From positions 1 to 64,000 of the IMG/VR virus record IMGVR_UViG_3300029142_000001: a stretch of DNA of 64,000 nucleotides; one strand, given 5' to 3'. Under the pieces are notes generated by a model, which was not told the DNA's origin, did no database searches, and was given only the letters and a program-made list of their open reading frames with translations. Shown in pieces: positions 26,777 to 56,810 of the stretch. The first letter of the stretch is position 1. The number at the start of each line of letters is the position of its first letter. Origin of the DNA: a virus (Duplodnaviria > Heunggongvirae > Uroviricota > Caudoviricetes). The position numbers were made by a program, and so were the translations under genes.

Positions 26777-27874
26777 ATGAATATTGAATCTTTAGGATTT
26801 ACAATTGTAGAACTTGAACAAGCCATTGAAGATGGCTTTGTTTCTGTTCGTGATCATCCTACAGAGGATCTTCGTATTTACAATTATACTGCAAAAGCAC
26901 AATATTCTAGAACATGGAATTCTGTAACAAGACAATGTAGAGGTCTTATTTTAGATCATGATTTGAACATCATTGCTTTGCCCTATGCTAAGTTCTTCAA
27001 TATTGAAGAAGAAATGGCAAATCCTGATAGTACTTGGCATACACCGACCAAATATTTCCTACAGGAAAAGCATGATGGTTGGTTGGGAATTCTTTATAGA
27101 GAACCAAAGTCTGGTTTGCTTTCAATTGCATCTCGTGGATCTTTTGATAGTTCTGGTGCTATTATTGCAACAAATATTCTCCGCACTAATCACTCTGATT
27201 TTGTTCCGGTGGAAGGTCTTACATACATGTTTGAAATCATTCATCCAGAAACAAAAATTGTTCTGGATTATGAAGGAAAAGAATCTCTCGTGTTTTTTGG
27301 CGTGAATAGTGTAAATGGACCCAACAATGATGTGAGTATATTTGACCAAATGCGGAAAAATGGTTTTGAAATTTGTGAATTCAAAGAACTTGGATGTGGA
27401 AATCTACGATTTTTGTTTGAAGAATACAAGCATGAAAATACAAAGAACAAAGAAGGATATGTTGTTGTAGATGCCAATGATTTTTCAAATCGGCTCAAGA
27501 TCAAATTTGAAAATTATATTCGTGATCATAGAATCATTACTCAACTAACCCCTCTTCGAGTGTGGGAAGCATTGCGTGATGGAGTCTACGATAATATTGT
27601 ATCCGTGTGTCCAGATGAGCATATGGAATGGTTACAGGAAATGCGAAATGAAATCGTAGAGCAATACAACGAAATTTTCTGGAAATCAAAGGCTGCGTTT
27701 GCAAGTTTGATGCTTCAGGTTTGGGATTTAATGTCCGATCCTTTGACTATTGATCGGAAAGAATTTGCTCAAAAAGCATTAAAATATCCAGAATTTGCAC
27801 CAATTTTGTTCGCTATGCTTGACAAAAAGGATTTTTCTCCTATAATTTGGAAGAAAATTAGACCAAATTCTTAA
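26777..27874 (+). CDS. rnlA: RNA ligase, Rnl1 family (T4 RnlA-like)
   Basis: LRIYNYTAKAQYSRTWNSVTRQCRGLIL and KFFNIEE parallel T4 Rnl1 YRIFSYNYASYSDW...ECRGIMF / KFFNLNE; motif I EKHDGW (KxDG). Confidence 0.65.
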   Translation: MNIESLGFTIVELEQAIEDGFVSVRDHPTEDLRIYNYTAKAQYSRTWNSVTRQCRGLILDHDLNIIALPYAKFFNIEEEMANPDSTWHTPTKYFLQEKHDGWLGILYREPKSGLLSIASRGSFDSSGAIIATNILRTNHSDFVPVEGLTYMFEIIHPETKIVLDYEGKESLVFFGVNSVNGPNNDVSIFDQMRKNGFEICEFKELGCGNLRFLFEEYKHENTKNKEGYVVVDANDFSNRLKIKFENYIRDHRIITQLTPLRVWEALRDGVYDNIVSVCPDEHMEWLQEMRNEIVEQYNEIFWKSKAAFASLMLQVWDLMSDPLTIDRKEFAQKALKYPEFAPILFAMLDKKDFSPIIWKKIRPNS

Positions 27875-27889
27875 TAAAGGAATTTTAAA

Positions 27890-28123
27890 ATGATTGATTA
27901 TGTGAATGCTTATGAAGTTAGGGTTCAATTTTGTTTGAGAATTCCATTGTTTTCCAAAGCTATTGATCGTGATGATACTCGTGATCGATGCTTTAAGCCC
28001 TGGGCATGGAGAGTCACAACCCGTGCATTTTCTCAAAAAAAATATAAAAACAATCGCATTTATATGAGTATGACTGACGCACTTTTGTTTGCTTCATGTG
28101 AAATGACAAACGAGTATACCTAA
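27890..28123 (+). CDS. hypothetical protein
   Basis: 77-aa ORF. Confidence 0.4.
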   Translation: MIDYVNAYEVRVQFCLRIPLFSKAIDRDDTRDRCFKPWAWRVTTRAFSQKKYKNNRIYMSMTDALLFASCEMTNEYT

Positions 28124-28150
28124 AACGATTTATATTAAAGGAATATTTTA

Positions 28151-29533
28151 ATGAACATGAATAATTTTATTTTGCGAACTGATGCATATAAGCTGACTCA
28201 CTGGCTCCAATATCCCCCAGGAACTCGGCATGTATATTCATACATGGAGTCTCGTGGTGGTGACGGTGACAGTACTTTGTTTTTCGGGTTGCAGTACTAT
28301 CTTCGTGAATATCTTGAAGGAACTGTTGTATCTCTAGAAGATGTTGATGAGGCACGAGAATTTGCACAATCTGTTTTCGGAACGGATAATTATTTTAACT
28401 ATGCTGGATGGTTGCGTATTGTGAATATGCATGGAGGTCGATTGCCTGTTCGTATTCGGGCTGTTGAAGAAGGGACTTGGATTGGTAAGCAAAATGTGAT
28501 GCTTACAATCGAAAATACAGATCCTGAACTTCCTTGGATTACTAATGTCATTGAAACTCTTTTGATGAAGCTTTGGTATCCAATTTCTGTTGCTTCTTAT
28601 TCTGGAAGCATCTATGATCTTCTTCGTGCAAAGGCAGCACTTACAGGTGGAGAAGTTTCTCCATTCCATTTGAATGATTTTGGATATCGTGGGGTTTCAT
28701 CCGAAGAATCTGCTGGTATCGGTGGGATGGCCCACCTTGTAAACTTCATGGGAACTGATACCCTTCGAGGAATCTTGTTTGCTCAGAAGTATTACGATGC
28801 AGAATATGGAACTGGTATGAGTGTTTTTGCTACGGAGCATTCCACAACCACAACTCACCTTGAATCGGGAGAAGAAGCAGCTATCGGTCAATATCTTGAT
28901 AACGCTGTAGGTATTGCTTCGATTGTTATGGATTCGTATGATACTTACCGATTTGTTGATGAATATATTGGAAAGGTATATCGAGATCGAATTGTTCATG
29001 GAAATGTCCGTGTTGTTCTTAGGCCAGATTCTGGAAATCCCATCGATCAAGTGATGTATATTCTGAATTCTTTGGAAAAGACTTTCCCGATTGAAAGAAA
29101 TGAAGAAGGATACAAACTACTTCATCCAAACATTGGAATCATCTATGGAGATTTCATGTCTTTTGAGACAATCGGAGAAGTTTGTAATGCCATGAAGGAT
29201 GCTGGATGGGCTATCGATGGTCGAAATGTGGTGTTTGGAATGGGTGGAAACCTTCTTCAGAACACTAATCGAGATACCCATCAATTCGCTCTGAAGTGTT
29301 CCTCATCGATGAACGGGGATGGGGAGTGGTTCGATGTCTACAAGGATCCAAAGACCATGCAATCTAAGAGATCCAAGAGAGGGCGTTTGGGACTGATTCG
29401 AGATGATAACGGAGATTTTCAAACTGTTCCAGAGGCTGATGGGGACGAATCTCTACTTTCCGTTGCTTTTGAAAACGGACGAATTGTTCGTCGCACAACA
29501 TTCAGTGCTGTTCAAAAGACTGCACAAATGTAA
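28151..29533 (+). CDS. nadV: nicotinamide phosphoribosyltransferase (NAMPT)
   Basis: N-terminal NFILRTDAYKLTHWLQYPPGT and overall 460-aa architecture typical of NAMPT/NadV. Confidence 0.8.
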   Translation: MNMNNFILRTDAYKLTHWLQYPPGTRHVYSYMESRGGDGDSTLFFGLQYYLREYLEGTVVSLEDVDEAREFAQSVFGTDNYFNYAGWLRIVNMHGGRLPVRIRAVEEGTWIGKQNVMLTIENTDPELPWITNVIETLLMKLWYPISVASYSGSIYDLLRAKAALTGGEVSPFHLNDFGYRGVSSEESAGIGGMAHLVNFMGTDTLRGILFAQKYYDAEYGTGMSVFATEHSTTTTHLESGEEAAIGQYLDNAVGIASIVMDSYDTYRFVDEYIGKVYRDRIVHGNVRVVLRPDSGNPIDQVMYILNSLEKTFPIERNEEGYKLLHPNIGIIYGDFMSFETIGEVCNAMKDAGWAIDGRNVVFGMGGNLLQNTNRDTHQFALKCSSSMNGDGEWFDVYKDPKTMQSKRSKRGRLGLIRDDNGDFQTVPEADGDESLLSVAFENGRIVRRTTFSAVQKTAQM

Positions 29534-31338: not shown

Positions 31339-32313
31339 ATGTCTACACATATTTGTCCGGTAGTACGGATTAAAAAGAGTCCACACCCAAATGCGGATTC
31401 TCTTTCTATTATGGAAATTATGGGATATGAAGTAGCTTTACGGAGTGATGATTGGGAAGATGGTCAATTGGCTGTTCATATTCCTCCTGATTATTGGGTT
31501 CCAGATACTTATCCATTTCAGTTTCTAAAACCAACTTCAACAAAGTGGCAGCGTACTCGAACAAAGAAGTTTCGTGGTCGTTATTCCTATGGATTTTTGA
31601 TTCCTTTGCCTGAAGAATTAAATCTTCAGGTAGGGGATAATGCTATGGAAGCTCTTGGAATCATTCGATATGAAGCACCAGAAAACACTTTTTCTGGAGA
31701 TAATGAATCCGCACCAGAAGGAATTTATCCGAAATACGATATCGAAAACTATCAGAGATACACGGATCTATTGGTAGATGGTGAAACTCAGGTTATTGTA
31801 ACCGAGAAAATTCATGGTGCAAATGCTCGATTTGTATTTACAGACGGGCGTATGCGTGCCGGTACAAGAACTCAATGGAAGAAAAGAGATAGTACCTGTA
31901 TGTGGTGGAGAGCAGTAGAACAAAATCCTTGGATTGAGGAATGGTGTACTGCAAATCCAGACATTACCATATATGGTGAAGTATTTGGTAATGTTCAAAA
32001 TTTAAAGTATGGTGCGATCGGTGGACAAATTTTCTTCCGGGCGTTTGATCTTCTTCAAAATGGTGAATGGATTGATTACACTAATTCCAGAGAAATTGGA
32101 AAGGGTATCGAATGGGTTCCTCTTGTTTATAGTGGACCAATGAACATCGAACTCTTTTCGGAAATCATTTTGGGCAATACTCAATTGATGGATCCAAAGA
32201 ATGCTCATATGATGGAGGGCGTGGTTATTCGTCCATTTGAAGAGATGTATGATTCTTCTGTTGGAAGAGTTATTCTTAAGCTTGTCTCGCCTAGATATTT
32301 GGAGAAGAACTAA
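31339..32313 (+). CDS. RNA ligase, Rnl2-like nucleotidyltransferase domain fused to an N-terminal Myf/EMAP-type tRNA-binding OB domain
   Basis: N-terminal ICPVVRIKKSPHPNADSLSIMEIMGYEVALRSD...QLAVHIP fits the tRNA-binding arm consensus (v.kI...HPnAdkL.v..vd.G); motif I EKIHGANARF matches Rnl2 KIHGTN. Confidence 0.6.
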   Translation: MSTHICPVVRIKKSPHPNADSLSIMEIMGYEVALRSDDWEDGQLAVHIPPDYWVPDTYPFQFLKPTSTKWQRTRTKKFRGRYSYGFLIPLPEELNLQVGDNAMEALGIIRYEAPENTFSGDNESAPEGIYPKYDIENYQRYTDLLVDGETQVIVTEKIHGANARFVFTDGRMRAGTRTQWKKRDSTCMWWRAVEQNPWIEEWCTANPDITIYGEVFGNVQNLKYGAIGGQIFFRAFDLLQNGEWIDYTNSREIGKGIEWVPLVYSGPMNIELFSEIILGNTQLMDPKNAHMMEGVVIRPFEEMYDSSVGRVILKLVSPRYLEKN

Positions 32314-32628: not shown

Positions 32629-33348
32629 ATGAGTAAAAAAGTCATGTTGGTTATTGCGAATTACAAAGACGAGAGGCAATCTATTTTTGATAATCAAATC
32701 TCTCCGAGAAATCAAGAATTTGCAGATGAACATGGATACGAATATATTGTCAGTAAAGGCGGTGATATATTTCGAGGTAATCCAACATGGTGGAAATTTA
32801 CTATACCTGTACAAATGATTAATGAGGGTGTTCTTCGACAAGAAGACACTCTTTTACATTTAGATGCAGATATGGTTATCACCAGAATCGGTAAAGATTA
32901 TCCTAATGATAAAACTTTTGCATACTCCATTGATAATGGAAATACGCATTGCATGGGAAATTATTCTCTTAAGATCAATGATTGGTCTGTAAATATGATT
33001 CGCCATATTCTTAGTGAAGAACTTTGGATGAAGATGCAAAATGATTATCATTGGTCCAGATTCAGAGAACAAGCTGCTTGGTATACTCTTTCTGGTGTGT
33101 GTCATCATAGCTGGGTTCCATTTTTGGATATGCCGAATTATGGATGGCATTCACACTTTACGGATGAAACTCGATATTCTGTAAGAGAACTACACGAAAG
33201 AGTGCATGTTTTAGGACCAGAATGGAATACGACTCTTGTAAATCCTCAAGAGAGATACTATATTCAACCATCAGACCCAAGCGAAACAATAATTAGACAT
33301 TTTGCTGGTGGTCAAAGATGGGATGTTAGTGATTGGATTTGGGCATGA
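32629..33348 (+). CDS. putative GT-A glycosyltransferase (DxD)
   Basis: LHLDADMVI DxD motif; start placed at MSKKVML after GGATTATAG RBS-like stretch. Confidence 0.4.
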   Translation: MSKKVMLVIANYKDERQSIFDNQISPRNQEFADEHGYEYIVSKGGDIFRGNPTWWKFTIPVQMINEGVLRQEDTLLHLDADMVITRIGKDYPNDKTFAYSIDNGNTHCMGNYSLKINDWSVNMIRHILSEELWMKMQNDYHWSRFREQAAWYTLSGVCHHSWVPFLDMPNYGWHSHFTDETRYSVRELHERVHVLGPEWNTTLVNPQERYYIQPSDPSETIIRHFAGGQRWDVSDWIWA

Positions 33349-34247
33349 AAAAAGATACAATTAGAATATGTTTTGTAGATTTTTGGCCTAATCTGTTCCA
33401 GGACGATAATTATTTTTATAATCTTCTATCAACAAAATACAATGTGATTATTGATTTTGAAAATCCAGATATTGTATTCTATTCTGTTGATTATATGAGG
33501 CGTGGAGATATTCGTAGATACATGGATAAACCATGTAAAAAGATCTATTACACAGGAGAAAACACACTTCCTGATTGGAATGTTGCTGATCTCGGATTCA
33601 CATTCGATTATGCATCACATGGAGGAAAGAACTACAGACTTCCTCTTTGGTCTCTCCTTATTAACTGGTTTGATCGTCCATACATTCAAGAAAGAGATCA
33701 TGCATATCTCCATGATCCAGAATATCTTCTAAATTCTAAGAAATTCTCCGGATTCAAGAATCTATTTTGTAATTTTGTATACACACAACCCAAAGCCCGT
33801 AGAGTTACTATATTCCCTAAATTGACCGAGGCATTTCCGGGTATGATTCATTCTGCTGGATCTGTTTTTAACAACACCGGAACAAAACTTCCCGGTCGTG
33901 GAGATACAAAGGATAAAGTAGATTATTTGTCAAATTTTAAATTTACCATCTCATTTGAGAATCAACAAGCAAGTGGATATCAAACCGAAAAAATATTCCA
34001 TCCAATGATGGTTGGAAGTATTCCAGTTTATTGGGGAAATCCAACTGTAAAGACTGATTTTAATCCAGACTCTTTCATCAATGCAAATACCATGACTGAT
34101 GAAGAGGTTATACATAGAATGCGTGAAATTCATGAAGATGATGAGCTATATCAGCATATCTTATCTCAACCGTGGTTTCACGATAATAAGTTTCCAGATT
34201 TTATCATGCCCACTAATGTTCTTGCAAAGATAGAGAGTATTTTATGA
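33345..34247 (+). CDS. alpha-1,3-fucosyltransferase-like (GT10)
   Basis: FKFTISFENQQASGYQTEKIFHPMMVGSIPVYWG matches the GT10 FxLxFEN...DYxTEK motif. Confidence 0.55.
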   Translation: MKKDTIRICFVDFWPNLFQDDNYFYNLLSTKYNVIIDFENPDIVFYSVDYMRRGDIRRYMDKPCKKIYYTGENTLPDWNVADLGFTFDYASHGGKNYRLPLWSLLINWFDRPYIQERDHAYLHDPEYLLNSKKFSGFKNLFCNFVYTQPKARRVTIFPKLTEAFPGMIHSAGSVFNNTGTKLPGRGDTKDKVDYLSNFKFTISFENQQASGYQTEKIFHPMMVGSIPVYWGNPTVKTDFNPDSFINANTMTDEEVIHRMREIHEDDELYQHILSQPWFHDNKFPDFIMPTNVLAKIESIL

Positions 34248-34909
34248 TTCCAACAACTTATGTTTTACATTATGATAAATTGCCAGAGAGAAGACAATTT
34301 ATGGAATATCAATTTGAACATCAAAAATTTTGTGATGTTGTTTGGTATACCGATGAGGAAGATAATCTAGAAGGAATTTACGATGGTGTAAACTCTTCTA
34401 GATTTACTGAAAAGGTCCGGATTGGTGGTTGGAATACAGAAGAACATCGTCCCCGATTTTTAAATCAAGCAGAAATATCATTAACAGCAAAATTCGGAAG
34501 AGTTTTTAGATTGATCGCAGAAAATCCAAATCCATATTCTTTGCTGTTTGAAGATGATGCTTGTTTATGCCCACATTTTCTTCAAAATATGAATTTATAT
34601 TTGCATAACACTCCAGATGATTGGGATGTTATCTATATGGGATCTGGTGCAAATTTACATCCTAAAAATCTTGAAATTGGAAAATATGCATATTTGATGG
34701 ATCATCCAGCTTCTCGTTGTGCAGATTCTATTCTTATCAAAAGAGAAGCGGCCAAGAAACTCGCAGATGATTTCTTTCCGTTTGATCTCTGTTCAGATTG
34801 GGAAATTGGATATCTTCAGGCAAAACATAAAATGAATGTTTATTGGTGGGAACCTTCTTTGGTTCATCAAGGATCTGAAACTAATCTCTTTAATTCTTCT
34901 CTAAGGTAA
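34244..34909 (+). CDS. glycosyltransferase family 25 (LPS/LOS-type)
   Basis: YVLHYDKLPERRQFMEYQF N-terminal and LLFEDDACLCPHF motif typical of GT25. Confidence 0.5.
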   Translation: MIPTTYVLHYDKLPERRQFMEYQFEHQKFCDVVWYTDEEDNLEGIYDGVNSSRFTEKVRIGGWNTEEHRPRFLNQAEISLTAKFGRVFRLIAENPNPYSLLFEDDACLCPHFLQNMNLYLHNTPDDWDVIYMGSGANLHPKNLEIGKYAYLMDHPASRCADSILIKREAAKKLADDFFPFDLCSDWEIGYLQAKHKMNVYWWEPSLVHQGSETNLFNSSLR

Positions 34910-34915
34910 AAGTAT

Positions 34916-48256: not shown

Positions 48257-48268
48257 ACGGAGTATATC

Positions 48269-48727
48269 ATGAATACAATCAATGAATTCACAGATGAAGA
48301 ACTTCAGCAAGAACTTGATCGAAGAAAGATTCAAGCTGCTTGTGAAGAAACTCTAAAAAAGTTGAAGGAATGGGGAAATCCTTATGGAGTGTGGAGGATT
48401 TCAACAGAAGGTGATTGTGAAGGGCGTACAGTAAATGTTCTTGCAACTCGAAAAGGCCATATTGCTGATCTTGCAAGAATCTATGAGAGGGATAAGATGT
48501 ACACTCTCACATTCACAAAAATTGATTTGGATGAAGATGATATTGTAGATACGCCTTCAGAAAAAGGTTCATTCTCTCTTAATTATCACACTTTTCCATC
48601 AGAAGTTGGAGGACATCATCTTGCAATGAGTCAAAAAGTTCATATTGTACAAGAATGGATTGGACCTAATTTTATTGTAGAGAGTTATGAACGAGGATCT
48701 TTTATTGTTAGTAAGAAAAAAACATAG
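48269..48727 (+). CDS. hypothetical protein
   Basis: 152-aa ORF. Confidence 0.45.
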   Translation: MNTINEFTDEELQQELDRRKIQAACEETLKKLKEWGNPYGVWRISTEGDCEGRTVNVLATRKGHIADLARIYERDKMYTLTFTKIDLDEDDIVDTPSEKGSFSLNYHTFPSEVGGHHLAMSQKVHIVQEWIGPNFIVESYERGSFIVSKKKT

Positions 48728-48779
48728 TTTAAAATAATATGAAAGCCTTCATTTTCCTATATAACTATAGGAGAGTGAA

Positions 48780-49271
48780 ATGGAAAAGAAAGTTTTAAAT
48801 GATTTAATAAATTCTGGATTGACACATAAAGAAATTGCAAATAAGGTGGGATGTAGTCAAACCAATGTAAGATATTATATCAAAAAATATAACATTAAAA
48901 AAGGATATTGTATAGTATGTAATAATCAATTGCAAGGAAATCAAAGAAAATATTGTTCTGATCAATGTAAGGGAAGAATATATAAAGAAAATGCAAATAT
49001 ATATGAAAATCAAAAAAAGAGAGCAATTGAAAGAAAAATTAAATTAATAAATATGTGTGGTGGTGAATGTTCTGTATGTGGTTATAAAAAAAATATAGCA
49101 GCATTACATTTTCATCATATTTTACCGGATACAAAATTATTTCAATTAGATTCTAGAAAATGTGCAAATTCTAAATGGAGTACACTACTAACAGAAGTTA
49201 AAAAATGCTCTCTTTTATGTGCAAATTGTCATGCTGAATTACATCATAAAAAATACAATAATTTGATTTAG
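48780..49271 (+). CDS. HNH homing endonuclease with N-terminal HTH
   Basis: LTHKEIANKVGCSQTNVRYYI HTH; HNH core ALHFHHILPD...CSLLCANCHAELHHK. Confidence 0.6.
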   Translation: MEKKVLNDLINSGLTHKEIANKVGCSQTNVRYYIKKYNIKKGYCIVCNNQLQGNQRKYCSDQCKGRIYKENANIYENQKKRAIERKIKLINMCGGECSVCGYKKNIAALHFHHILPDTKLFQLDSRKCANSKWSTLLTEVKKCSLLCANCHAELHHKKYNNLI

Positions 49272-49357
49272 GGGCGAGTTCCATAGCGGCCTAATGGACC
49301 GGACTCATAATCCGGCGAGTTCACACTCAAACGCAGGTTCGAATCCTGTCTCGCCCA
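49272..49357 (+). tRNA. atypical class-II-like tRNA with CAT anticodon
   Basis: Perfect acceptor gggcgag/ctcgccc, D ccat/atgg, AC ccgga/tccgg loop ctCATaa, 17-nt variable region with gagt/actc stem, T-arm gcagg-ttcgaat-cctgt; 86 nt. Confidence 0.45.
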
Positions 49358-49376
49358 TTTTAAAGGAGAATATAAC

Positions 49377-49907
49377 ATGATTTGGCTGGGATGTATTTAT
49401 ATTAGTGTAATTCTTTTGTTGGTGGCCATTTTTGATCCTGGAGATTTTTTTGGATGTATAGCATTAATGTGGTTTATTTTATCTTTATTGATGCTCCTGG
49501 TACTCACTCCCGCTTTTTATGCTGAATCCCGAAGACTTAATCCGAATAGATTGGTTCAACAAAAAGTAATTTTTGAAGAATCTATTCTTCCATCGGAAGA
49601 AGGTTACTATGGTTTATATTTAAATGAATGGAGTGAATTTCATTATGTATCAACTGGATTTGCATTTAGATATTCAGATGGAACAAAAGATTTTGTAGAA
49701 TCGTACTCAATTTCCTTTTCAGATGATGTAGATGCTCCTACAGTATTTAAGTACAAGAATATCTATGAGGTAAATGATTTGTTTTTTCCTTCTTTCAAAT
49801 CGCACATTACTCATGAAGATGGTGTATATTATTTCGTATTTCCATCATCATATCGATCAGAATTTAATACAAAATTCATTACTACTACTTTGTACGAGGA
49901 TTTTTAA
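49377..49907 (+). CDS. membrane protein
   Basis: 176 aa, two N-terminal TM helices. Confidence 0.45.
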   Translation: MIWLGCIYISVILLLVAIFDPGDFFGCIALMWFILSLLMLLVLTPAFYAESRRLNPNRLVQQKVIFEESILPSEEGYYGLYLNEWSEFHYVSTGFAFRYSDGTKDFVESYSISFSDDVDAPTVFKYKNIYEVNDLFFPSFKSHITHEDGVYYFVFPSSYRSEFNTKFITTTLYEDF

Positions 49908-50275
49908 TGGAATGGTACTTTCTTATTATTCTGGCCATTTTTATCACAAAACACCTTATTGTTGATTTTTTCTGGCAGTCTGGATATGAAGTGGCAAACA
50001 AAGGAACTTATGGACATTTCGGTGGTATTTTACATACCGGAAAACATGTCATTGTTTCGGCTTTCTTTCTTATGTTTCTTGTTTCTCCTTTGACTCTTTT
50101 TCTTCTATGTGCATTTGAATTTGTGGTCCATTACCATATGGACTGGTTTAAGATGTGGTGGGGAAAAAGAAAGAAATTTACACCAAATGATGCAAAATTT
50201 TGGCATTGGATGGGAATAGATCAATATATACATTACTTTACTTATCTGATTATGGTTGCTATAATGCTTCTGTAA
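49907..50275 (+). CDS. multi-pass membrane protein
   Basis: 122 aa with 3-4 hydrophobic segments. Confidence 0.45.
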   Translation: MEWYFLIILAIFITKHLIVDFFWQSGYEVANKGTYGHFGGILHTGKHVIVSAFFLMFLVSPLTLFLLCAFEFVVHYHMDWFKMWWGKRKKFTPNDAKFWHWMGIDQYIHYFTYLIMVAIMLL

Positions 50276-50285
50276 GATAAAATTG

Positions 50286-50358
50286 GCTCCTGTATATCAA
50301 TGGCGAGATGGCTTCCGTTACATGGAAGAGGTTGCTGGTTCGAATCCAGCCAGGAGCA
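50286..50358 (+). tRNA. tRNA-Val (anticodon TAC)
   Basis: Acceptor gctcctg/caggagc, AC cttcc/ggaag loop gtTACat, T-arm gctgg-ttcgaat-ccagc. Confidence 0.7.
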
Positions 50359-50360
50359 TT

Positions 50361-50510
50361 ATGACAAAAGAAGAAGCAAACAAAAAGTTAGAAGAAATTA
50401 TTGAAAATTATAGGAAAGAATTTATAATTTTAGATAAAATTCGTAAAGATGAGCAGGAAAAATTTGATAATTCTTGGATAGGTAAAATTGTAAACAGATT
50501 GGAATTTTAA
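50361..50510 (+). CDS. small hypothetical protein
   Basis: 49-aa ORF beginning right after the tRNA; the longer listed ORF would overlap the tRNA. Confidence 0.3.
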   Translation: MTKEEANKKLEEIIENYRKEFIILDKIRKDEQEKFDNSWIGKIVNRLEF

Positions 50511-51085
50511 TTATGAAAAATAGCACAGATTTCCAAAAAAATGTCTAGAATATTTCATTATATTTTTTCATGTATGGAACCCATTATGGGAAATGATATG
50601 CAAGAATTTGTTTTAGAATGTGAAGAAGACTAAAAATGAATAATTTATCATATAACGAAGACAAAGCGGATTTAATCAGGAAGGCAGCAGTAAATGAAGC
50701 TTTTAAGTTTCTAGAAAATCCTGATGATCTCGATGTTTTAGAAAGATTAATAGAATATGGAACTATTTTGAAAAATATAAAAAATGAAAGTGAAGGAGCA
50801 TATAGTAATGGATATTGATATTTTGACAAGTGGACTGAAAGATTTTCTGAAATCATTTGACCCAACCCTTGAAACATGCTATAATGCTGATGACCCTTCA
50901 GAATGGTATACCGGAAATGCAGATGACGATATGAGCAATGGATATGATGCTGGATATCACGCGGCACAAGAACAAATTATGGGAATTGTGAAGGCAGCAG
51001 AAGCAGGTAGATAATATATACAAAGGCGGCGTGAAACTTAAACGGTCAAGACGAAACTTTGACTCCGGATTCGTAACCGGAATTT

Positions 51086-51158
51086 GGGACGGTAGCTTAG
51101 TTGGTAAAGCGTACCGCTGATAACGGTGAGATCATAGGTTCAAGTCCTATTCGTCCTA
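51086..51158 (+). tRNA. tRNA-Ile (anticodon GAT)
   Basis: Acceptor gggacgg/tcgtcct, D gctt-agttggta-aagc, AC taccg/cggtg loop ctGATaa, T-arm atagg-ttcaagt-cctat; resembles E. coli tRNA-Ile. Confidence 0.7.
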
Positions 51159-51190
51159 TTTTTTAGATATTATTCACAGGAAATTATAAA

Positions 51191-51379
51191 ATGAATACCA
51201 AGCATAAATCTATTAGGCATTCAAAGAAAAATCTACGAATCAAATCACATCATATTGATTCTAATTTTCCACCACGGCTTAATATTGATGGGATACAATT
51301 AAAATCATCTATCCCTACAACATATTCTACCGGAGATTATATTTTATGGGGACCAAAAAGATTTAGAACAGAAAGTTGA
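51191..51379 (+). CDS. hypothetical basic protein
   Basis: 62-aa ORF. Confidence 0.35.
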   Translation: MNTKHKSIRHSKKNLRIKSHHIDSNFPPRLNIDGIQLKSSIPTTYSTGDYILWGPKRFRTES

Positions 51380-51639
51380 ATATTATGGAAACTTTTGAAG
51401 ATAAAATTGATGAATTAATCAGTCTTTTAGAGTATATGAAGGATGAAATTCCATCAGAAGAATTAAAAGAACCTTCAAATATTTCAATTGGAATTGCAAT
51501 GCATGGATGGACGCATAGAAATTCAGATATGCATAGAACTGAATACCGAATGATACGATGGGCAGATATCTATACAAGAGGCATGGGTATAGAAGCATCA
51601 TTGGTAAAATCTAGACATTTTAGTAAAATTTCAGATTAA
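51376..51639 (+). CDS. hypothetical protein
   Basis: 87-aa ORF. Confidence 0.4.
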   Translation: MNIMETFEDKIDELISLLEYMKDEIPSEELKEPSNISIGIAMHGWTHRNSDMHRTEYRMIRWADIYTRGMGIEASLVKSRHFSKISD

Positions 51640-51645
51640 AATTTG

Positions 51646-51717
51646 GGGGTAGTAGCTCAGTGGTAGAGCTTTTCGTTGATAACGGAACGGTCGGAGGTTC
51701 GAACCCTCCCTGCCCTA
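51646..51717 (+). tRNA. tRNA with GAT anticodon (Ile, second copy)
   Basis: Acceptor ggggtag/ctgccct (2 GU), D gctc-agtggta-gagc, AC tttcg/cggaa loop ttGATaa, T-arm ggagg-ttcgaac-cctcc. Confidence 0.55.
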
Positions 51718-51743
51718 TTGTTTGACATTAAAGGAGATATATT

Positions 51744-52070
51744 ATGTCAACTCCAACAGGTGGAAATTCCTTGCATGTTCTTGGCTCAAAGCCTCTTCAT
51801 AGAAGGTATGATACAAAAATGTTCATGAAGTATATTCGACCATCGTATTACATGGCAAACGCTCCTGAATGTTTTTGCTTGTCTGTTTTCTTCTTCTGTA
51901 TTCTTGCAGGATTGATTCCTTTTACAAGCTTGCTTACTGGAAGCACTTTGCTTATTGGTTTGAGTGTACTTGGATTTATGTTTCTAGCTTCTGCTTTGTT
52001 TTTGATGCTTGGAATTTATTCAAAAATTTCTTATGCACGAGAGAGAAATAAGAAAAATTCCTCTACATAA
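51744..52070 (+). CDS. membrane protein
   Basis: 108 aa, two TM helices. Confidence 0.45.
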   Translation: MSTPTGGNSLHVLGSKPLHRRYDTKMFMKYIRPSYYMANAPECFCLSVFFFCILAGLIPFTSLLTGSTLLIGLSVLGFMFLASALFLMLGIYSKISYARERNKKNSST

Positions 52071-52077
52071 TAGTAAT

Positions 52078-52149
52078 GCTCTTCTGCCCGAATGGTTAGG
52101 GTCTGGATTGCAAATCCAGTATATTTCGGTTCGAATCCGAAGGGGAGCT
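52078..52149 (+). tRNA. tRNA-Cys (anticodon GCA)
   Basis: Acceptor gctcttc/ggggagc, AC ctgga/tccag loop ttGCAaa, T-arm ttcgg-ttcgaat-ccgaa. Confidence 0.65.
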
Positions 52150-52157
52150 TTAAAATT

Positions 52158-52229
52158 GTCCTTATGGTGATAGTGGTAACACACTTTCTTGGTACGAAAG
52201 AATCTCAGGTTCGATTCCTGATAGGGACT
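52158..52229 (+). tRNA. tRNA-Thr (anticodon GGT)
   Basis: Acceptor gtcctta/tagggac, AC ctttc/gaaag loop ttGGTac, T-arm tcagg-ttcgatt-cctga. Confidence 0.65.
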
Positions 52230-52243
52230 TTGGAGAATACACA

Positions 52244-52546
52244 ATGAATTTTTATGATGTGCATGGAAGAAGAATCTATGTTTATAGAGTTTACCATTAT
52301 GAATCAAATGAATTATATGTTACATCTCAAAAAGGTGTAGAAGATGAAATCAAAAAAATCATTAATAGAATTGAGATTTTGTTCAAAGAGATTATGGACT
52401 TAGATTATGATAATTCAGAACATGAAGAAATTGAGAAAAATCTAATTGATCAAATAAACTATTTACGAGAAAAAGCGTTTTCTAAATATGGACTCACTAA
52501 GATTGAAGCTGAAGAAGATCGTACTTTTATGAGTATGCATTTCTAA
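52244..52546 (+). CDS. hypothetical protein
   Basis: 100-aa ORF. Confidence 0.45.
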   Translation: MNFYDVHGRRIYVYRVYHYESNELYVTSQKGVEDEIKKIINRIEILFKEIMDLDYDNSEHEEIEKNLIDQINYLREKAFSKYGLTKIEAEEDRTFMSMHF

Positions 52547-52558
52547 AGAAGATTTGAT

Positions 52559-52798
52559 GTGAAAAGAACAGCAATTATCTATTTTAAAGACGGCACACAC
52601 ATAAAAACACAAAAACATATCTCTTCTAAACAGATTGAAAATTCATATTTATCTAGAACTGAAATAAGAGATATGATTGATAATGAAATTAGAAAATCTG
52701 TTAGGGCGTTTTTAGTTAGACATGATCGAAAAATTGAAAATATTGATTTCACCAGAACAAATTCAGCAATGATTAAATTTGTGTTTGAAGAATCTTGA
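52559..52798 (+). CDS. hypothetical protein
   Basis: 79-aa ORF. Confidence 0.4.
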   Translation: MKRTAIIYFKDGTHIKTQKHISSKQIENSYLSRTEIRDMIDNEIRKSVRAFLVRHDRKIENIDFTRTNSAMIKFVFEES

Positions 52799-52822
52799 CT
52801 TTCAAAAAATATACTCTATAAT
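52795..52822 (+). promoter_or_regulatory. promoter (TTGACTTT-16-TATAAT)
   Basis: -35 at 52795-52800, -10 at 52817-52822. Confidence 0.55.
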
Positions 52823-53033
52823 GAAGACAAAGGGAGATATTCATGAAACTTTGGTCTCTTAGAATGATGATCGCTTTTGCTCAATTTGTAAGTGCAATTA
52901 TTTGCATATTTACTTTGGCAGCAATTCGACCTTCATTTCAAACAAAATTTCAAATGAAGCTCCTTAGATCATATTGTGAAGATCTTGAAAAAGAACTACC
53001 CAAATCCAATATGTAAAAATTTCTTTAAATGGC

Positions 53034-53061
53034 TTGACTTTACATATTTTTATGTTATAAT
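53034..53061 (+). promoter_or_regulatory. promoter (TTGACTTT-16-TATAAT)
   Basis: -35 at 53034-53039, -10 at 53056-53061. Confidence 0.55.
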
Positions 53062-53079
53062 GTGTATAGGAGATTAATC

Positions 53080-53427
53080 ATGTTTGAAAATGAAGATTAT
53101 TGCGAGTCTGAATTTAATCAATTGATCGATTGTGTCTCATATGACCCAGAGGGAAAGGTTTCTGATTTGATTCGGGAGCTTCAAAAAATCAAAGAGAGAT
53201 ATGAGGGTGCCACAATCATTCAAGATGGGTATCCGGAAGATGGAAGATATTGTGTAGTCCATTATGTCCGAAAGACTCCTGAAGAGATTGAAGAATATAA
53301 AAAAGAACAAGAGGCCAAGGAACAAGAGAAAAGGCGAAGAGAAGAGAATCAACGAAAAGGCGATTTGATGATTATGAGAAATCTTGCAAAAAAGCATAAT
53401 ATTCGTATTGAATTTCCAGAAAATTGA
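53080..53427 (+). CDS. hypothetical charged protein
   Basis: 115 aa after GGAGATTAATC RBS. Confidence 0.45.
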   Translation: MFENEDYCESEFNQLIDCVSYDPEGKVSDLIRELQKIKERYEGATIIQDGYPEDGRYCVVHYVRKTPEEIEEYKKEQEAKEQEKRRREENQRKGDLMIMRNLAKKHNIRIEFPEN

Positions 53428-53446
53428 CTATATAATGCTACAACAT

Positions 53447-53520
53447 GAGAGTGAAGCTTATTAGGAAAAGCGGTAGATTTCCAATCTACAGTCTTGCGGG
53501 TTCAAATCCCGTCACTCTCT
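53447..53520 (+). tRNA. tRNA-Gly (anticodon TCC)
   Basis: Perfect acceptor gagagtg/cactctc, D gctt/aagc, AC gtaga/tctac loop ttTCCaa, T-arm gcggg-ttcaaat-cccgt. Confidence 0.7.
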
Positions 53521-53769
53521 TTACTCCTGTTGAGGATTCGCCAAAATCCAAGATAGCGGGACTAAAATTTGGGATAGATGCAAAGGACGATTTTAAATCT
53601 TGGCGGGTTTATTATGACAGTCTTGTTGAATACCAAATTTTAGGATTTTATAAATGGGAGTGTCGGCTCGGCTGTTAAGAGCAGTATGAATACTATAGAT
53701 CATGCTATTTGAGAAGATTGATCGTCTTAACTCAAGCACGCGGGTTCAAATCCCGACCACTTCCTGCCT

Positions 53770-53841
53770 GTCCCTGTAGTTTAACTGGGAAAACAGTTGA
53801 CTTGTAATCTACAGATCTCGGTTCGATTCCGAGCGGGGACT
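53770..53841 (+). tRNA. tRNA-Thr (anticodon TGT)
   Basis: Acceptor gtccctg/cggggac, D gttt-aactggga-aaac, AC gttga/tctac (one U-U) loop ctTGTaa, T-arm ctcgg-ttcgatt-ccgag. Confidence 0.6.
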
Positions 53842-53977
53842 TTGAAACTTGGTTAGGGCGGAAAGGGCACTGGAACTAACCACCAACCCTTTCCGTCAAT
53901 TTCCGGTTAAGCATAAAAAGCGATGCGTTCGCCTTGTAAGCGAAATAACTCGGGGCAGTACCGGGAACCGGATTTTT
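53842..53977 (+). ncRNA. structured GC-rich small RNA embedded in the tRNA cluster (non-tRNA)
   Basis: 9-bp perfect hairpin cggaaaggg/ccctttccg (53859-53895), then a 71-nt domain closed by tccggtt/aaccgga (53902-53972), then TTTTT; no ORF. Confidence 0.45.
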
Positions 53978-54049
53978 AGGACTATAGTGTAACTGGCAGC
54001 ACTAGAGACTCTGACTCTCTCAGTACAGGTTCGAATCCTGTTAGTCTTG
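53978..54049 (+). tRNA. tRNA-Gln (anticodon CTG)
   Basis: Acceptor aggacta/tagtctt, D gtgt/gcac, AC agaga/tctct loop ctCTGac, T-arm acagg-ttcgaat-cctgt. Confidence 0.65.
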
Positions 54050-54058
54050 TTTTCATCT

Positions 54059-54131
54059 AGGATCGTCGTATAACGGCTTATTATAGCGGGCTTTGAACCC
54101 GTTGATGGGGGTTCGATTCCCTCCGGTCCTG
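54059..54131 (+). tRNA. tRNA-Gln (anticodon TTG)
   Basis: Acceptor aggatcg/cggtcct, AC gcggg/cccgt loop ctTTGaa, T-arm ggggg-ttcgatt-ccctc; D-arm slightly irregular. Confidence 0.55.
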
Positions 54132-54154
54132 TTCAAAAATAAAATAAAAATTGC

Positions 54155-54183
54155 TTGACTTTTCGAGATAAATCTCCTATAAT
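54155..54183 (+). promoter_or_regulatory. promoter (TTGACTTT-17-TATAAT)
   Basis: -35 at 54155-54160, -10 at 54178-54183. Confidence 0.55.
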
Positions 54184-54211
54184 GGTATAGTACCAAATAG
54201 GAGATTTTTTA

Positions 54212-54685
54212 ATGCTTACTGAATCTATTACTCTGATGACAAAAACTCGTATTGGTAAATCTACTTGGAATGTGAAATTTCATCCCAGCGTGGAAACTTA
54301 TGAAAAGATTCGTTGCCTGATTGGGAAAAATTCTTCATTTTTTCGGGCTGAAAATCGAAATCGTTATACTAGTGAAATGACCTGGGATGAAATGATTGAG
54401 GCTGGAAAGAGCTATATGGTAGGGAGTGATGTCCCCACTAAGAAGTATCTTGCATCACATACAACTTACATGAATGATTCTCAGTGGCTTTACTGGGCTG
54501 TTCAGTGGGCATTTGAAAATGAAGATGGGCGATTGATTGTGAAAACGCATTCAAAAGATTATGAGATTTACCGTAGGGGTGAATGGGTTGAAATTGCTCT
54601 TCCTCATCATGGTCGAGGCGGTGAAAAGCATTGGGTTGTTCATAAGAGCAATCCAAACAAGAAGATTTTGATTAATGTTGATTGA
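54212..54685 (+). CDS. hypothetical protein
   Basis: 157-aa ORF after AATAGGAGATTTTTTA RBS. Confidence 0.5.
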   Translation: MLTESITLMTKTRIGKSTWNVKFHPSVETYEKIRCLIGKNSSFFRAENRNRYTSEMTWDEMIEAGKSYMVGSDVPTKKYLASHTTYMNDSQWLYWAVQWAFENEDGRLIVKTHSKDYEIYRRGEWVEIALPHHGRGGEKHWVVHKSNPNKKILINVD

Positions 54686-54693
54686 GAAATAAA

Positions 54694-54882
54694 ATGAAAA
54701 AGTATCGAGTTCAGTGGACATATTTGGTAGATAAATCTAGAACTGCAATTGTAGAGGCAGAATCAGAAGATGAAGCTTCTGAAATTGCATCCATGCTGGA
54801 AGATACTGATCCTAGAATGGTAGAACAACGAGATAAAACCGAACCATTGAATTGGGAAGTTGAGGAAATTGAAAATGACTGA
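54694..54882 (+). CDS. small acidic protein
   Basis: 62 aa. Confidence 0.4.
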   Translation: MKKYRVQWTYLVDKSRTAIVEAESEDEASEIASMLEDTDPRMVEQRDKTEPLNWEVEEIEND

Positions 54883-55495
54883 TCGAAAACTTACATCTTA
54901 TGGAGGGTCTGGATTTTCATATGAACAAGATGGAAAAGTTTATGATGTAGATGCTCATACCGATAAACAAAATTCCATTATCAGTATGCTTTTTGAGTAT
55001 GATTTTCGAAGGGTGGATAATGAATTTCTAGAAGAAAATGGATTTTATCCAGATGATGAGAATGTACATCATCTATTTCATAAAATGACAGATGCTGTTG
55101 ATGAATGGAAAGAAGAAAATCCAGGTGTTTTTGGATATAAACTAATGAAATTTATGGAAGATACAGTAAACAATGATGTTTTTCTTAGGAATCATGTTAC
55201 GGTTGCATATGTGGATGATGATTCACATGCAAGTTCCGTAGTATTTTTGGTTCCTCATTATACAAATTACAGATACATGGGAACATCTGTTTGGTATGTT
55301 CCTCAATGCACAGGAGAAGAAGATATTCGTTTTTTCCTGTACCCAGGGGCTCATAGAGAAATGATTCGTGCGTTGAATCTTATTGTTGAAAAATATTTTG
55401 ATGAAGGATATCCACAAGTAAAATCCCCAATGGACAGAGAAATAGATAGACTAAAAGGAGAACTTCTAGACACAGTTGATGGAGAAGAACAATGA
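54875..55495 (+). CDS. hypothetical protein
   Basis: 206-aa ORF. Confidence 0.45.
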   Translation: MTDRKLTSYGGSGFSYEQDGKVYDVDAHTDKQNSIISMLFEYDFRRVDNEFLEENGFYPDDENVHHLFHKMTDAVDEWKEENPGVFGYKLMKFMEDTVNNDVFLRNHVTVAYVDDDSHASSVVFLVPHYTNYRYMGTSVWYVPQCTGEEDIRFFLYPGAHREMIRALNLIVEKYFDEGYPQVKSPMDREIDRLKGELLDTVDGEEQ

Positions 55496-55857
55496 ATGTT
55501 GATTATGCAGATATTGGATCTTGCTTGCATACTGTCATGCGAAAATTTTTAAGTAGTGATGTATCAGCAATTGTTTGGAATTTCATTCATATGGATGCAG
55601 CAAATGATGCATGGGAAATTATTCTAAAGGATATTTCCAAAGAATTTGAAGAACTTGAACTAGATCCAGAAGATCCGGATAGTGTAAAAGATGAACAAAT
55701 TGCAAAAGTTCTCCGCTATGCATGGATTGAAAATTATAACCCATTTGATGCAAAAAGAGAAGAAACTATTCTTCGTGTAGCTGGAAGAGGATTTGATCAG
55801 GAAAATGATTGGCTTGGATTTGCAAATTGTCTTAGAGAATGGGTAATTGAATCATAA
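55492..55857 (+). CDS. hypothetical protein
   Basis: 121-aa ORF, ATGA overlap. Confidence 0.45.
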   Translation: MNVDYADIGSCLHTVMRKFLSSDVSAIVWNFIHMDAANDAWEIILKDISKEFEELELDPEDPDSVKDEQIAKVLRYAWIENYNPFDAKREETILRVAGRGFDQENDWLGFANCLREWVIES

Positions 55858-55867
55858 GATTTATCAA

Positions 55868-56173
55868 ATGAAAAAGAAACAATTAATTCGATATAATTTC
55901 AGAGAAGAGGTATTCAAGAGAGATGATTATCGGTGTAGATGTTGTGGTATAAAAGATGTAAAATTGGATGCCCATCATATTATTGATAGAAATAATATGC
56001 CAAATGGTGGATATGTGAAAGAAAATGGCATATCATTATGCGAACCATGTCACGAGAAAGCAGAGTTTGAACATCAGGGAATGGAGCCCCTTCCAGGGTA
56101 TAGCAGAAGAGAATTGTTTTTACTGATCAATTCAAATGAGAAATTGGCCAGATACAAATCAGAAAGACTTTGA
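55868..56173 (+). CDS. HNH endonuclease
   Basis: YRCRCCG...LDAHHIIDRNNMPNGG...CEPCHEKAE HNH core. Confidence 0.6.
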   Translation: MKKKQLIRYNFREEVFKRDDYRCRCCGIKDVKLDAHHIIDRNNMPNGGYVKENGISLCEPCHEKAEFEHQGMEPLPGYSRRELFLLINSNEKLARYKSERL

Positions 56174-56810
56174 TATGTGCTATAAATATCCTAGAACCTT
56201 TCATTTAGATTGTTCTCCTGGAGTGCAGTCTGATGATAAAATCTTTCCAGATATGAGTGTGTTGAAAAAGCATCGCTTCGTTATGACAGAAAAGATGGAT
56301 GGAGAAAACACCACTCTTTATCGTGATAAAATGCACGCTAGATCTTTGAACTATCGACATAACTATACTAGAGATTTGATTAGATCCTATCATGCTCTTA
56401 TCAAGTATGATATTCCACAGGGTTGGAGGATATGCGGAGAAAATCTTTCATATGTTCACAGTATTGAATATAAAGAATTGCCCCACTATTTCATGGTATT
56501 TTCTGTGTGGGATTCAAATAATAATTGTCTTTCATGGGAAGACACAAAATCATTTTGCTCCGATCGGGGAATCTATATGGTTCCAGAAATTGGAAAAGAT
56601 TTTACTGGAACTGTTGAAGACACTGCAAGATTGTTTATGGAATATGAAAAAAACAAAGAATGTGAAGGCTTTGTTTTGAGAAATCAGGATGCATTTTCAT
56701 ATGAAGATTTTGGAAAAAATGTATTTAAATGGGTAAGAGAAAATCATGTTCAAACGGATGAACATTGGCTAAAGAATGCCATCCCACAAAGGTATAATAA
56801 GGAGATTTGA
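56136..56810 (+). CDS. putative RNA/polynucleotide ligase (KxDG nucleotidyltransferase, Rnl2/DRB0094-like)
   Basis: KYPRTFHL near the N-terminus and TEKMDGEN motif I; alternative start at 56175 (MCYKYPRT); 5' end overlaps the HNH gene. Confidence 0.45.
   Translation: MRNWPDTNQKDFDMCYKYPRTFHLDCSPGVQSDDKIFPDMSVLKKHRFVMTEKMDGENTTLYRDKMHARSLNYRHNYTRDLIRSYHALIKYDIPQGWRICGENLSYVHSIEYKELPHYFMVFSVWDSNNNCLSWEDTKSFCSDRGIYMVPEIGKDFTGTVEDTARLFMEYEKNKECEGFVLRNQDAFSYEDFGKNVFKWVRENHVQTDEHWLKNAIPQRYNKEI

Follow-up and report, generated by a model that had tools for sequence, protein, structure and literature searches.

Four predicted RNA ligases of four clades and a 33-gene tRNA array in an uncultured phage with a T4-like backbone

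We analyzed a stretch of 64,000 nucleotides of viral DNA (positions 1 to 64,000 of IMG/VR record IMGVR_UViG_3300029142_000001, referred to as the window herein) in which four genes on the plus strand are predicted to encode RNA ligases: a Rnl1-like enzyme (26777-27874), an Rnl5-family enzyme (31339-32313), RtcB (42634-43845), and a minimal ligase preceded by an HNH nuclease gene (55868-56810). A large tRNA array starts at position 46188. The window is part of a 79-kb metagenome contig of the Joint Genome Institute (JGI), and a second JGI contig (L001), 100% identical to the window across an overlap of 11,399 nucleotides, reaches 9.2 kb beyond its 3′ end. In total, ∼73 kb of sequence is visible (the window and ∼9 kb beyond it), and the whole genome is probably much larger. 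The guanine-plus-cytosine content is 34%. When 20 kb were compared by megablast with 50,697 phage records, there were zero matches, and the phage therefore has no close cultured relative. Its T4-like backbone genes encode T4 RNase H, a gp33-type late-transcription coactivator, Cpn10 (gp31-like), DHFR, and thymidylate synthase, and judged by this gene content it is an uncultured phage with a T4-like backbone.

The first ligase gene (26777-27874, plus strand) encodes a protein of 365 residues with the motif I sequence EKHDGW. Residues 53-245 match PF09511 (RNA_lig_T4_1) with 54.4 bits (E = 2e-14, gathering cut-off 28.3), and residues 12-363 match phrog_562 (E = 6e-62), a family labeled 'RNA ligase and tail fiber protein attachment catalyst'. 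When the protein was aligned by phmmer to the T4 Rnl1 structures 5tt6 and 9do4 (E = 2e-9 to 4e-10), motifs I, III, IV, and V were in register, with KHDGW, FEII, EGYVVV, and KIKFENY opposite KEDGS, FEFV, EGYVAV, and KIKSDWY of T4 Rnl1. The T4 Rnl1 alignment stops at residue 285 of 365, and TIGR02308 (T4 RnlA) is covered at model positions 30-328 of 373 with 44.4 bits, which is under its equivalog cut-off of 242.25; in enzymes of the T4 RnlA type, a helical domain at the C terminus confers tRNA specificity. The nearest phage homologues, from Streptomyces and Arthrobacter phages, share 33 to 37% identity. Together with the PF09511 match, the aligned motifs bear out the original prediction, made from the letters of the sequence, of a Rnl1-like ligase at this position, and we assign the predicted ATP-dependent enzyme to the Rnl1 superfamily as a divergent member.

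The second ligase gene (31339-32313, plus strand; 324 residues, motif I EKIHGAN) had been described as an Rnl2-like ligase fused to a tRNA-binding domain. Our Pfam analysis found a PF21189 OB domain at residues 11-90 followed by a PF09414 RNA_ligase domain at residues 151-316 (E = 1e-22). The protein matches TIGR02306, the DRB0094 family, with E = 4e-39 and 134.5 bits, just under the equivalog cut-off of 151.15, and its sequence match to NgrRnl (5cot; E = 2e-13) takes in the N-terminal module as well as the nucleotidyltransferase domain, with K157 aligned to K170 of NgrRnl. Residues K157, E214, D237, E293, and K314 are invariant in an alignment of 56 family sequences; K157, E214, E293, and K314 are the catalytic residues of motifs I, III, IV, and V. 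The AlphaFold (AF2) model has a mean predicted local distance difference test (pLDDT) value of 93.2, and in Foldseek searches it superposes on full-length NgrRnl with a template-modeling (TM) score of 0.75 to 0.78 (E = 1e-20) but on T4 Rnl2 with only 0.42 to 0.48. Taken together, the NgrRnl and TIGR02306 matches, the invariant residues, and the full-length superposition place this protein in the Rnl5 (DraRnl/NgrRnl-type) family; assignment to Rnl2 was ruled out by the TIGR02306 match, the NgrRnl sequence match, and the TM scores favoring NgrRnl. The Pfam tRNA_bind family gave no match to the protein at E≤0.1, and its N-terminal domain is the OB module of Rnl5 enzymes, not a demonstrated tRNA-binding domain. 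The earlier call was thus right about a ligase and wrong about both its family and its appended domain. Characterized Rnl5 members seal 3′-OH/5′-PO4 nicks in duplexes with an RNA 3′-OH strand and require the N-terminal OB module for adenylylation and nick sealing (PMC1807946, PMC5397189, PMC7261155).

The third gene encodes RtcB, predicted to be a GTP- and Mn-dependent 3′-phosphate RNA ligase of 403 residues (42634-43845, plus strand; the start was taken at ATG 42634 in a frame open from 42574). It spans model positions 1-426 of 426 of PF01139 (E = 5e-112, 375.8 bits) and matches phrog_1075 (E = 6e-118). In the alignment to Pyrococcus horikoshii RtcB (E = 4e-44), the Asp, Cys, and His metal ligands and the guanylylated His (SCSHGSGR) are aligned, and the motifs GVDIGCG, GDGNHF, IHSGSR, HHNY, and SHGSGR match. 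Identity to the RtcB of any deposited phage is at most 43%. With the domain full length and the catalytic residues kept, RtcB was correctly named in the original prediction.

The fourth ligase had been listed as a KxDG ligase at 56136-56810. We found that it belongs to a minimal, nucleotidyltransferase-only group of the Rnl2 superfamily (motif I EKMDGEN, plus strand) and that an upstream partner gene, an HNH nuclease ORF of 101 residues (55868-56173, plus strand; PF01844), had been missed. The ligase (mini-ligase herein) matches PF09414 with E = 7e-29 and 101.7 bits, and its PHROG matches are phrog_34045 and positions 128-335 of 342 of phrog_24030, 'RNA ligase'. The best PHROG of the HNH ORF is the same phrog_24030, at positions 2-63 of 342, and the ORF is 52% identical (E = 6e-17) to the N terminus of a fused HNH-ligase relative (P0009). 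Many relatives of the mini-ligase have 340 to 360 residues and an N-terminal HNH domain. A chance homing endonuclease was ruled out for the HNH ORF by these fusion relatives, and by sequence the pair is a two-gene version of the known HNH-ligase fusion. The junction reads CTT-TGA-T-ATG, with ATG 56175 one base past the HNH stop codon; translation from it gives MCYKYPRT, fitting the family N-terminal consensus MxxxKYPRT, and a length of 211 residues (224 from 56136), close to the usual ∼210. From its junction, N terminus, and length, the ligase most likely begins at 56175, translationally coupled to the HNH gene, rather than at 56136. Because searches of PDB by sequence and profile with the mini-ligase gave nothing significant, a comparison of folds was needed. 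The AF2 model is a single domain (pLDDT 86.7), and its top Foldseek PDB matches are all ATP-dependent RNA ligases (Rnl3 2vug, NgrRnl, and T4 Rnl2; TM ∼0.5, 14-20% identity). The protein ends ∼15 residues past motif V and lacks the C-terminal domain that T4 Rnl2 requires to seal 3′-OH/5′-PO4 nicks; its TM to T4 Rnl2 is 0.43 to 0.52. Residues K53, D55, G56, E102, E177, G178, and K198 are invariant in an alignment of 63 sequences; they include the motif I lysine (K53) and residues of motifs III, IV, and V. The clade, of more than 2,500 members, is without a solved structure or biochemistry detectable by sequence.

The unusual split bears on whether the four ORFs are intact. A separate HNH ORF directly upstream of the ligase was found only in this window among 84 independent loci; 19 loci have an in-frame fusion, three have the HNH ORF directly downstream, four have it within 0.9 to 2.2 kb, and 58 have none. 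The frames of the two ORFs are offset by +1, there is a T5 run 15 nucleotides upstream of the overlap, and only metagenome assemblies stand behind the sequence, all of which would fit a frameshift or assembly error in a once-fused gene or, more broadly, an inactive remnant among the four ORFs. However, all family-invariant residues are kept in both ORFs, the TGA-T-ATG junction is typical of translational coupling, the MCYKYPRT N terminus and 211-residue length are typical of stand-alone relatives, and the second contig agrees at every base of the overlap. We regard such a remnant or error as extremely improbable. More generally, Pfam matches well above thresholds and concordant PHROG labels ('RNA ligase', 'tRNA splicing ligase') confirm the first proposal that all four ORFs encode RNA ligases, and the nucleotidyltransferase fold is present in both the 31339 and the 56136 proteins, neither of which is a DNA-ligase fragment.

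The tRNA array (46188-63246 in the window, plus strand) contains small ORFs and homing-endonuclease-like genes among its tRNAs. ARAGORN found 24 tRNA genes in the window, which Rfam (RF00005) confirmed in agreement with the large cluster first noted, and nine more lie just beyond it on the second contig, for a total of 33. The Rfam scan returned tRNAs only, and neither Y RNA nor introns nor any further kind of structured RNA. The Pfam scan identified an ORF with HTH and HNH-like features within the array (48780-49271), a PDDEXK_5 ORF between two Lys tRNAs (60872-61378), and an HNH/Zn-ribbon-like ORF between two Asn tRNAs (62602-63165). Several isoacceptors are paired, namely Lys-UUU, Tyr, Asn, and Ile-GAU between 51085 and 63246 and Arg-UCU further downstream; the sequences within pairs are very divergent, and these are therefore not recent duplications. 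Lys, Tyr, and Asn tRNAs are typical targets of anticodon nucleases. Some tRNAs have the architecture of the other class: the CAU ('Met') tRNA and one GUU ('Asn') tRNA (49272-49357 and 62499-62584) are 84 to 86 nucleotides long with a stem-loop variable arm, as in class II, and all three Leu tRNAs (UAG, UAA, and CAA; L001 12386-12461, 14422-14497, and 15513-15588, window-equivalent 64987-68189) are 74 to 76 nucleotides long without a long arm, as in class I. In other large-phage loci, 11 of ∼155 tRNAs show similar oddities; one locus, L065, has three class-I Leu tRNAs together with class-II Thr and Lys tRNAs.

Instead of acting in counter-defense, the ligases could serve the phage's own RNA: they might mature its 33 tRNAs or control their quality, reseal cuts that its own nucleases make, or circularize RNA. 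RtcB is the tRNA-splicing ligase of archaea and eukaryotes; here it lies 2.3 kb upstream of the array, the mini-ligase lies inside the array, the array includes tRNAs of atypical architecture, and the JGI label of one relative is 'ATP-dependent RNA circularization protein'. However, neither ARAGORN nor Rfam found introns or split or permuted tRNAs, and the maturation of bacterial and phage tRNAs needs no ligase. We consider service to the phage's own RNA, in place of counter-defense, quite unlikely.

Beyond 10.8 kb the plus strand carries nearly all genes, and its promoters are consistent with early expression. Seventeen sites with at least 11 of 12 matches to TTGACA-N16/17-TATAAT, of the shared form TTGACT-N16/17-TATAAT, lie between 27819 and 62105, all on the plus strand and all intergenic. 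Among them, a TTGACT-16-TATAAT promoter (42307-42334) heads the unit of an ORF at 42354-42620 and RtcB, a perfect 12/12 promoter (46153-46180) lies eight nucleotides upstream of the first tRNA, and an 11/12 promoter (54155-54183) heads the unit with the HNH gene and the mini-ligase. Promoter-like sites are enriched between 46 and 64 kb, with 109 sites compared to 73.7 ± 9.6 in shuffles. T4-type late promoters (TATAAATA) were found before none of the plus-strand genes of the window, the ligase genes included. From the 17 near-consensus sigma-70 promoters and the absent late promoters, we predict that this is an early accessory region transcribed by the host polymerase.

Several neighboring genes are of kinds associated with counter-defense. 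Between the first two ligases lies a gene for nicotinamide phosphoribosyltransferase (NAMPT), an enzyme of NAD salvage (28151-29533, plus strand; PF18127 and PF04095), and NAMPT was also found near the mini-ligase in 10 related loci (including L007, L008, L022, L023, L026, L031, L032, L053, and L090). A stand-alone RelA/SpoT-type HD hydrolase, or small alarmone hydrolase, is encoded 2 kb upstream of RtcB (40073-40669, plus strand). It matches the hydrolase part of TIGR00691 (E = 2.5e-9), PDB entry 9s6k (E = 1e-5), the (p)ppApp hydrolase 7smg, and phrog_990; by these profile and PDB matches it is an alarmone hydrolase of RelA/SpoT type, and a 2′,3′-phosphoesterase acting in end healing was ruled out. 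Since small alarmone hydrolases counteract toxSAS toxins, which pyrophosphorylate tRNA CCA ends (bioRxiv 10.1101/2021.04.30.441581), this protein may by analogy add a fifth activity that restores tRNAs, or its role may be no more than alarmone degradation. Downstream of the tRNA array (L001 16273-20564) lie candidate anti-defense genes encoding DUF6876, DUF932, NUDIX, and Gad1-family proteins. A protein of 114 residues at 63627-63971 (phrog_2428) has a weak precomputed Acb2/Tad1-hairpin match that was not reproduced in the Pfam scan at E≤0.01.

Other features of the window touch the ligases less closely. A class II (B12-dependent) ribonucleotide reductase gene at 22138-25560 is split by an intein bearing a LAGLIDADG endonuclease. 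A cluster of glycosyltransferase-type genes (32629-38151) lies between the ligases, and further such genes stand on the minus strand at the window start (662-2959); the types represented are FucT/GT10, GT25, sulfotransferase-like, Glyco_trans_1_2, and nucleotide-diphospho-sugar transferase, and their role may be in cell-surface or DNA modification. An SPFH/Band-7 protein is encoded at 4209-5210 on the minus strand, opposite to the ligases and at a distance of more than 20 kb from each of them. SPFH modules were reportedly proposed by Burroughs and Aravind in 2016 as scaffolds in RNA-repair systems.

To place the locus among other viruses, we assembled 88 viral loci with relatives of the Rnl5-like ligase (8) or the mini-ligase (80), with L006 and L009 as extra loci. 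Within 10 kb of the ligase, arrays of at least four tRNA genes occur in five of the eight Rnl5 loci and in 10 of the 80 for the mini-ligase, and also in both extra loci, which brings the mini-ligase total to 12. In seven loci (five from IMG/VR, together with L007 and L008), T4-type Pnkp lies no more than ∼4 kb from the mini-ligase, and in five of these the distance is 0.1 to 1.3 kb. Genes flanking the mini-ligase in some loci are candidate end-healing genes: in L007/L008 (L007 8244-12752) a TPM_phosphatase is directly upstream and the T4-type Pnkp 1.2 kb downstream, and the mini-ligase of L006 (7118-9845) has as neighbors an AAA_28 P-loop protein, a pair of Metallophos proteins, NADAR, and R2K. 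L015-L017 show the gene order of the window, with a Rnl1-like gene 5 to 6.6 kb upstream of the Rnl5-like gene. In the Erwinia jumbo phage pEa_SNUABM_37 (L098, MW845760.1 90005-92578), an Rnl5-like gene (441 residues) directly abuts RtcB (412 residues), and both genes, 00115 and 00116, were deposited as 'hypothetical protein'.

We also estimated how rare the full complement is. Across deposited phage records, RtcB was found in 707, the Rnl1-like clade in 430, and the Rnl5-like clade in 162. The mini-ligase was found in 33 records, most of them genomes of 230 to 735 kb. When the four proteins were used as one tblastn query, there were 1,069 matching places in 1,055 deposited records, and therefore at most 14 records have more than one of the four clades, although a concatenated query undercounts divergent paralogues; phage BcepSauron, for instance, showed RtcB only, whereas three ligase types are described for it in the literature. 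The complement of the window is thus unusually rich in number but not new in kind.

By sequence criteria, the visible genome encodes four intact RNA ligases of four clades, together with an array of 33 tRNA genes that stands behind strong host-type promoters. As originally proposed, they are predicted to cover both sealing chemistries, RtcB acting on 3′-phosphate or 2′,3′-cyclic-phosphate and 5′-OH ends and the ATP-dependent ligases on 3′-OH and 5′-phosphate ends. On balance, and by analogy to characterized systems, we favor the view with moderate confidence that the early accessory region encodes a redundant kit that keeps the translation machinery working, probably against host tRNA cleavage. 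In such a kit, 2′,3′-cyclic-phosphate and 5′-OH ends left by metal-independent host tRNases (PrrC, RloC, colicin, and HEPN types) would be resealed directly by RtcB through His-GMP, without end healing. Two-metal tRNases such as AriB of the PARIS system would leave 3′-OH and 5′-phosphate ends, as reported for AriB (PMC12409363), which the ATP-dependent ligases could reseal via lysyl-AMP without Pnkp. If characterized relatives are a guide, the ATP-dependent ligases would probably split this work by substrate shape, the Rnl1-like enzyme taking single-stranded anticodon-loop breaks, as in T4, and the Rnl5 enzyme taking nicks within duplex RNA stems. The phage tRNAs would replace host tRNAs that are depleted or beyond repair; phage tRNAs have been found to neutralize tRNA-targeting defenses (PMC11464382, PMC11555353, PMC10264068). 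NAMPT, the alarmone hydrolase, NUDIX, Gad1, and the weak Acb2/Tad1-like match are the neighbors of counter-defense type that we count in favor of such a kit. The early promoters also speak for it, as do the links that recur in other viruses: tRNA arrays near relatives of the mini-ligase and the Rnl5-like ligase, Pnkp near the mini-ligase, the Rnl1-Rnl5 gene order of L015-L017, and the Rnl5-RtcB pair of the Erwinia phage.

A number of observations weigh against it. The four ligase genes form no operon but stand 4.5 to 13.5 kb apart over 30 kb, in separate transcription units and with the glycosyltransferase cluster between them. A nucleotidyltransferase-only ligase may not seal breaks alone, as known from the N-terminal domain of T4 Rnl2. 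Partner enzymes are also missing from the window. The Pfam scan of its 81 ORFs of at least 85 residues contained neither a Pnkp-type kinase/phosphatase domain nor a HAD-type or calcineurin-type 3′-phosphatase, and no Walker-A (P-loop) motif was found in the six frames of the window. Archease, PrfH, RlaP, a CCA-adding enzyme, 2H/LigT phosphoesterase, Tpt1, RtcA, and Hen1 were likewise found neither among the window ORFs of at least 85 residues nor among the small ORFs flanking the ligases. None of the 88 viral loci has RtcB within 10 kb of an ATP-dependent ligase (Rnl5-like or mini-ligase). Lastly, even in Deinococcus, where loss of DraRnl causes sensitivity to ionizing radiation, the physiological role of Rnl5 enzymes is uncharted (PMC5397189).

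Because RtcB is never near either ATP-dependent ligase in those loci, the co-occurrence of the four genes may be mere accumulation of accessory genes. Under this explanation, independent accessory or mobile genes would have gathered without forming a functional unit, together only since the early region is hyperplastic: the Rnl1-like protein would act mainly in tail-fiber attachment, like T4 gp63, the Rnl5 enzyme would seal RNA-containing DNA nicks in replication or repair, the HNH-ligase pair would be a selfish mobile cassette, and RtcB would be a lone acquisition. The dispersal of the genes over separate promoter units, with glycosyltransferases and NAMPT between them, fits this picture, as do the tail-fiber attachment label of phrog_562, the radiosensitivity of Deinococcus without DraRnl, the frequency of homing-endonuclease-like genes in the region, and the three different HNH-ligase arrangements, which suggest a mobile module. 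However, many unrelated viral contigs repeatedly bring RNA ligases together with tRNA arrays and Pnkp, which, together with the Rnl5-RtcB pair of the Erwinia phage, argues for a shared RNA-repair theme. Furthermore, with at most 14 of the 1,055 deposited records having more than one clade, four by pure chance are unlikely. We therefore judge accumulation without a common function to be unlikely, while still giving it some weight.

The missing kinase/phosphatase deserves separate comment. Domain scans and tblastn with the Pnkp of a relative turned up no such enzyme in the window or in the 9 kb that follow, in line with what had first been noted for the window. This absence cannot be extended to the genome, because the visible sequence amounts to only ∼73 kb and Pnkp stands beside the mini-ligase in relatives; Pnkp may well be encoded elsewhere in the genome. 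Were Pnkp truly absent, the genes could form a healing-free kit, with RtcB for cyclic-phosphate ends, three shape-specialized ATP-dependent ligases for the 3′-OH/5′-phosphate breaks made by PARIS, retron, and PIN-type nucleases, the HNH partner acting on RNA in a coupled trim-and-seal enzyme instead of as a DNA homing nuclease, and the class-swapped tRNAs (class-I Leu; class-II CAU and GUU) serving as decoys or resisting nucleases. This stronger version of the redundant repair kit is, in our judgment, highly unlikely.

For the broader kit against tRNA cleavage, the defense-evasion role first suggested is plausible given the early promoters, the tRNA array, NAD salvage, the alarmone hydrolase, and the downstream candidate anti-defense genes, with the role itself drawn by analogy; what did not hold up is the idea of a discrete system, as the genes are scattered across 30 kb and belong to separate units. 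If the proposed roles are true, the region would be a compact natural catalogue of RNA-sealing chemistries against tRNA-targeting defenses (PrrC/RloC, PARIS, retron effectors, Schlafens, and toxSAS). The concept is already published, and the value of the locus lies in one more rich example and in enzymes to test rather than in a new principle. The four ligases are uncharacterized and possibly useful as tools.

Comparison with known systems shows what the locus shares and where it departs. T4, which restores tRNAs cut by PrrC with Pnkp and Rnl1, has in common with the window phage the T4-like backbone, a Rnl1-superfamily ligase, and a tRNA cluster with interspersed endonuclease genes. Unlike T4, the window and the 9 kb beyond it have no Pnkp, and the Rnl1-like protein is far under the T4 RnlA equivalog cut-off; conversely, T4 lacks RtcB, an Rnl5 enzyme, and the HNH-ligase pair. 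T4 has eight tRNA genes compared to 33 here. Like DraRnl of Deinococcus radiodurans and NgrRnl of Naegleria gruberi, the Rnl5-family protein has an OB module and a nucleotidyltransferase domain without a C-terminal domain and keeps the catalytic Lys/Glu/Lys residues, but it is phage-encoded, is ∼21% identical to them, and scores under the TIGR02306 cut-off. RtcB resembles the enzymes of the Escherichia coli RtcBA operon and of P. horikoshii in its full-length domain, metal ligands, and GMP-accepting His, and its 403 residues are typical of bacterial enzymes; in contrast to the E. coli operon, it belongs to a phage clade (phrog_1075) and has no RtcA, RtcR, archease, or PrfH nearby. The Erwinia phage pEa_SNUABM_37 also combines an Rnl5-like ligase with RtcB, adjacent there and 10 kb apart in the window.

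The closest parallel is with the jumbo phages surveyed by Iyer et al. (2021, Viruses 13:63; PMC7824862), in which RtcB and ligases of the ATP type supplement the tRNAs; because that study states almost the same for jumbo phages, the defense-evasion idea is not new. Phages BcepSaruman and BcepSauron of Burkholderia carry RtcB, Rnl1, and Rnl2, and Xanthomonas phage XacN1 carries three Rnl2 paralogues (PMC7824862). The XacN1 homologue of the mini-ligase is 45% identical to it. Some Rnl2-family members in jumbo phages bear N-terminal HNH domains, which Iyer et al. speculate attack competing DNA; the ligases were proposed to be non-redundant and specialized against different RNase effectors, and alarmone phosphodiesterases and NAD-salvage enzymes occur in the same genomes (PMC7824862). 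The window matches these complements in its RtcB, several ATP-type ligases, and many tRNAs, in its HNH-linked Rnl2-superfamily ligase, and in its NAD-salvage and alarmone-hydrolase genes. It differs from them in having four clades, including an Rnl5 type, within 30 kb, in the HNH/ligase split into two coupled genes, and in a T4-like backbone with no Pnkp in the visible sequence. The particulars of this locus are thus the Rnl5-type enzyme in the mix, the split HNH/ligase module, the T4-like backbone, and the 33 tRNAs.

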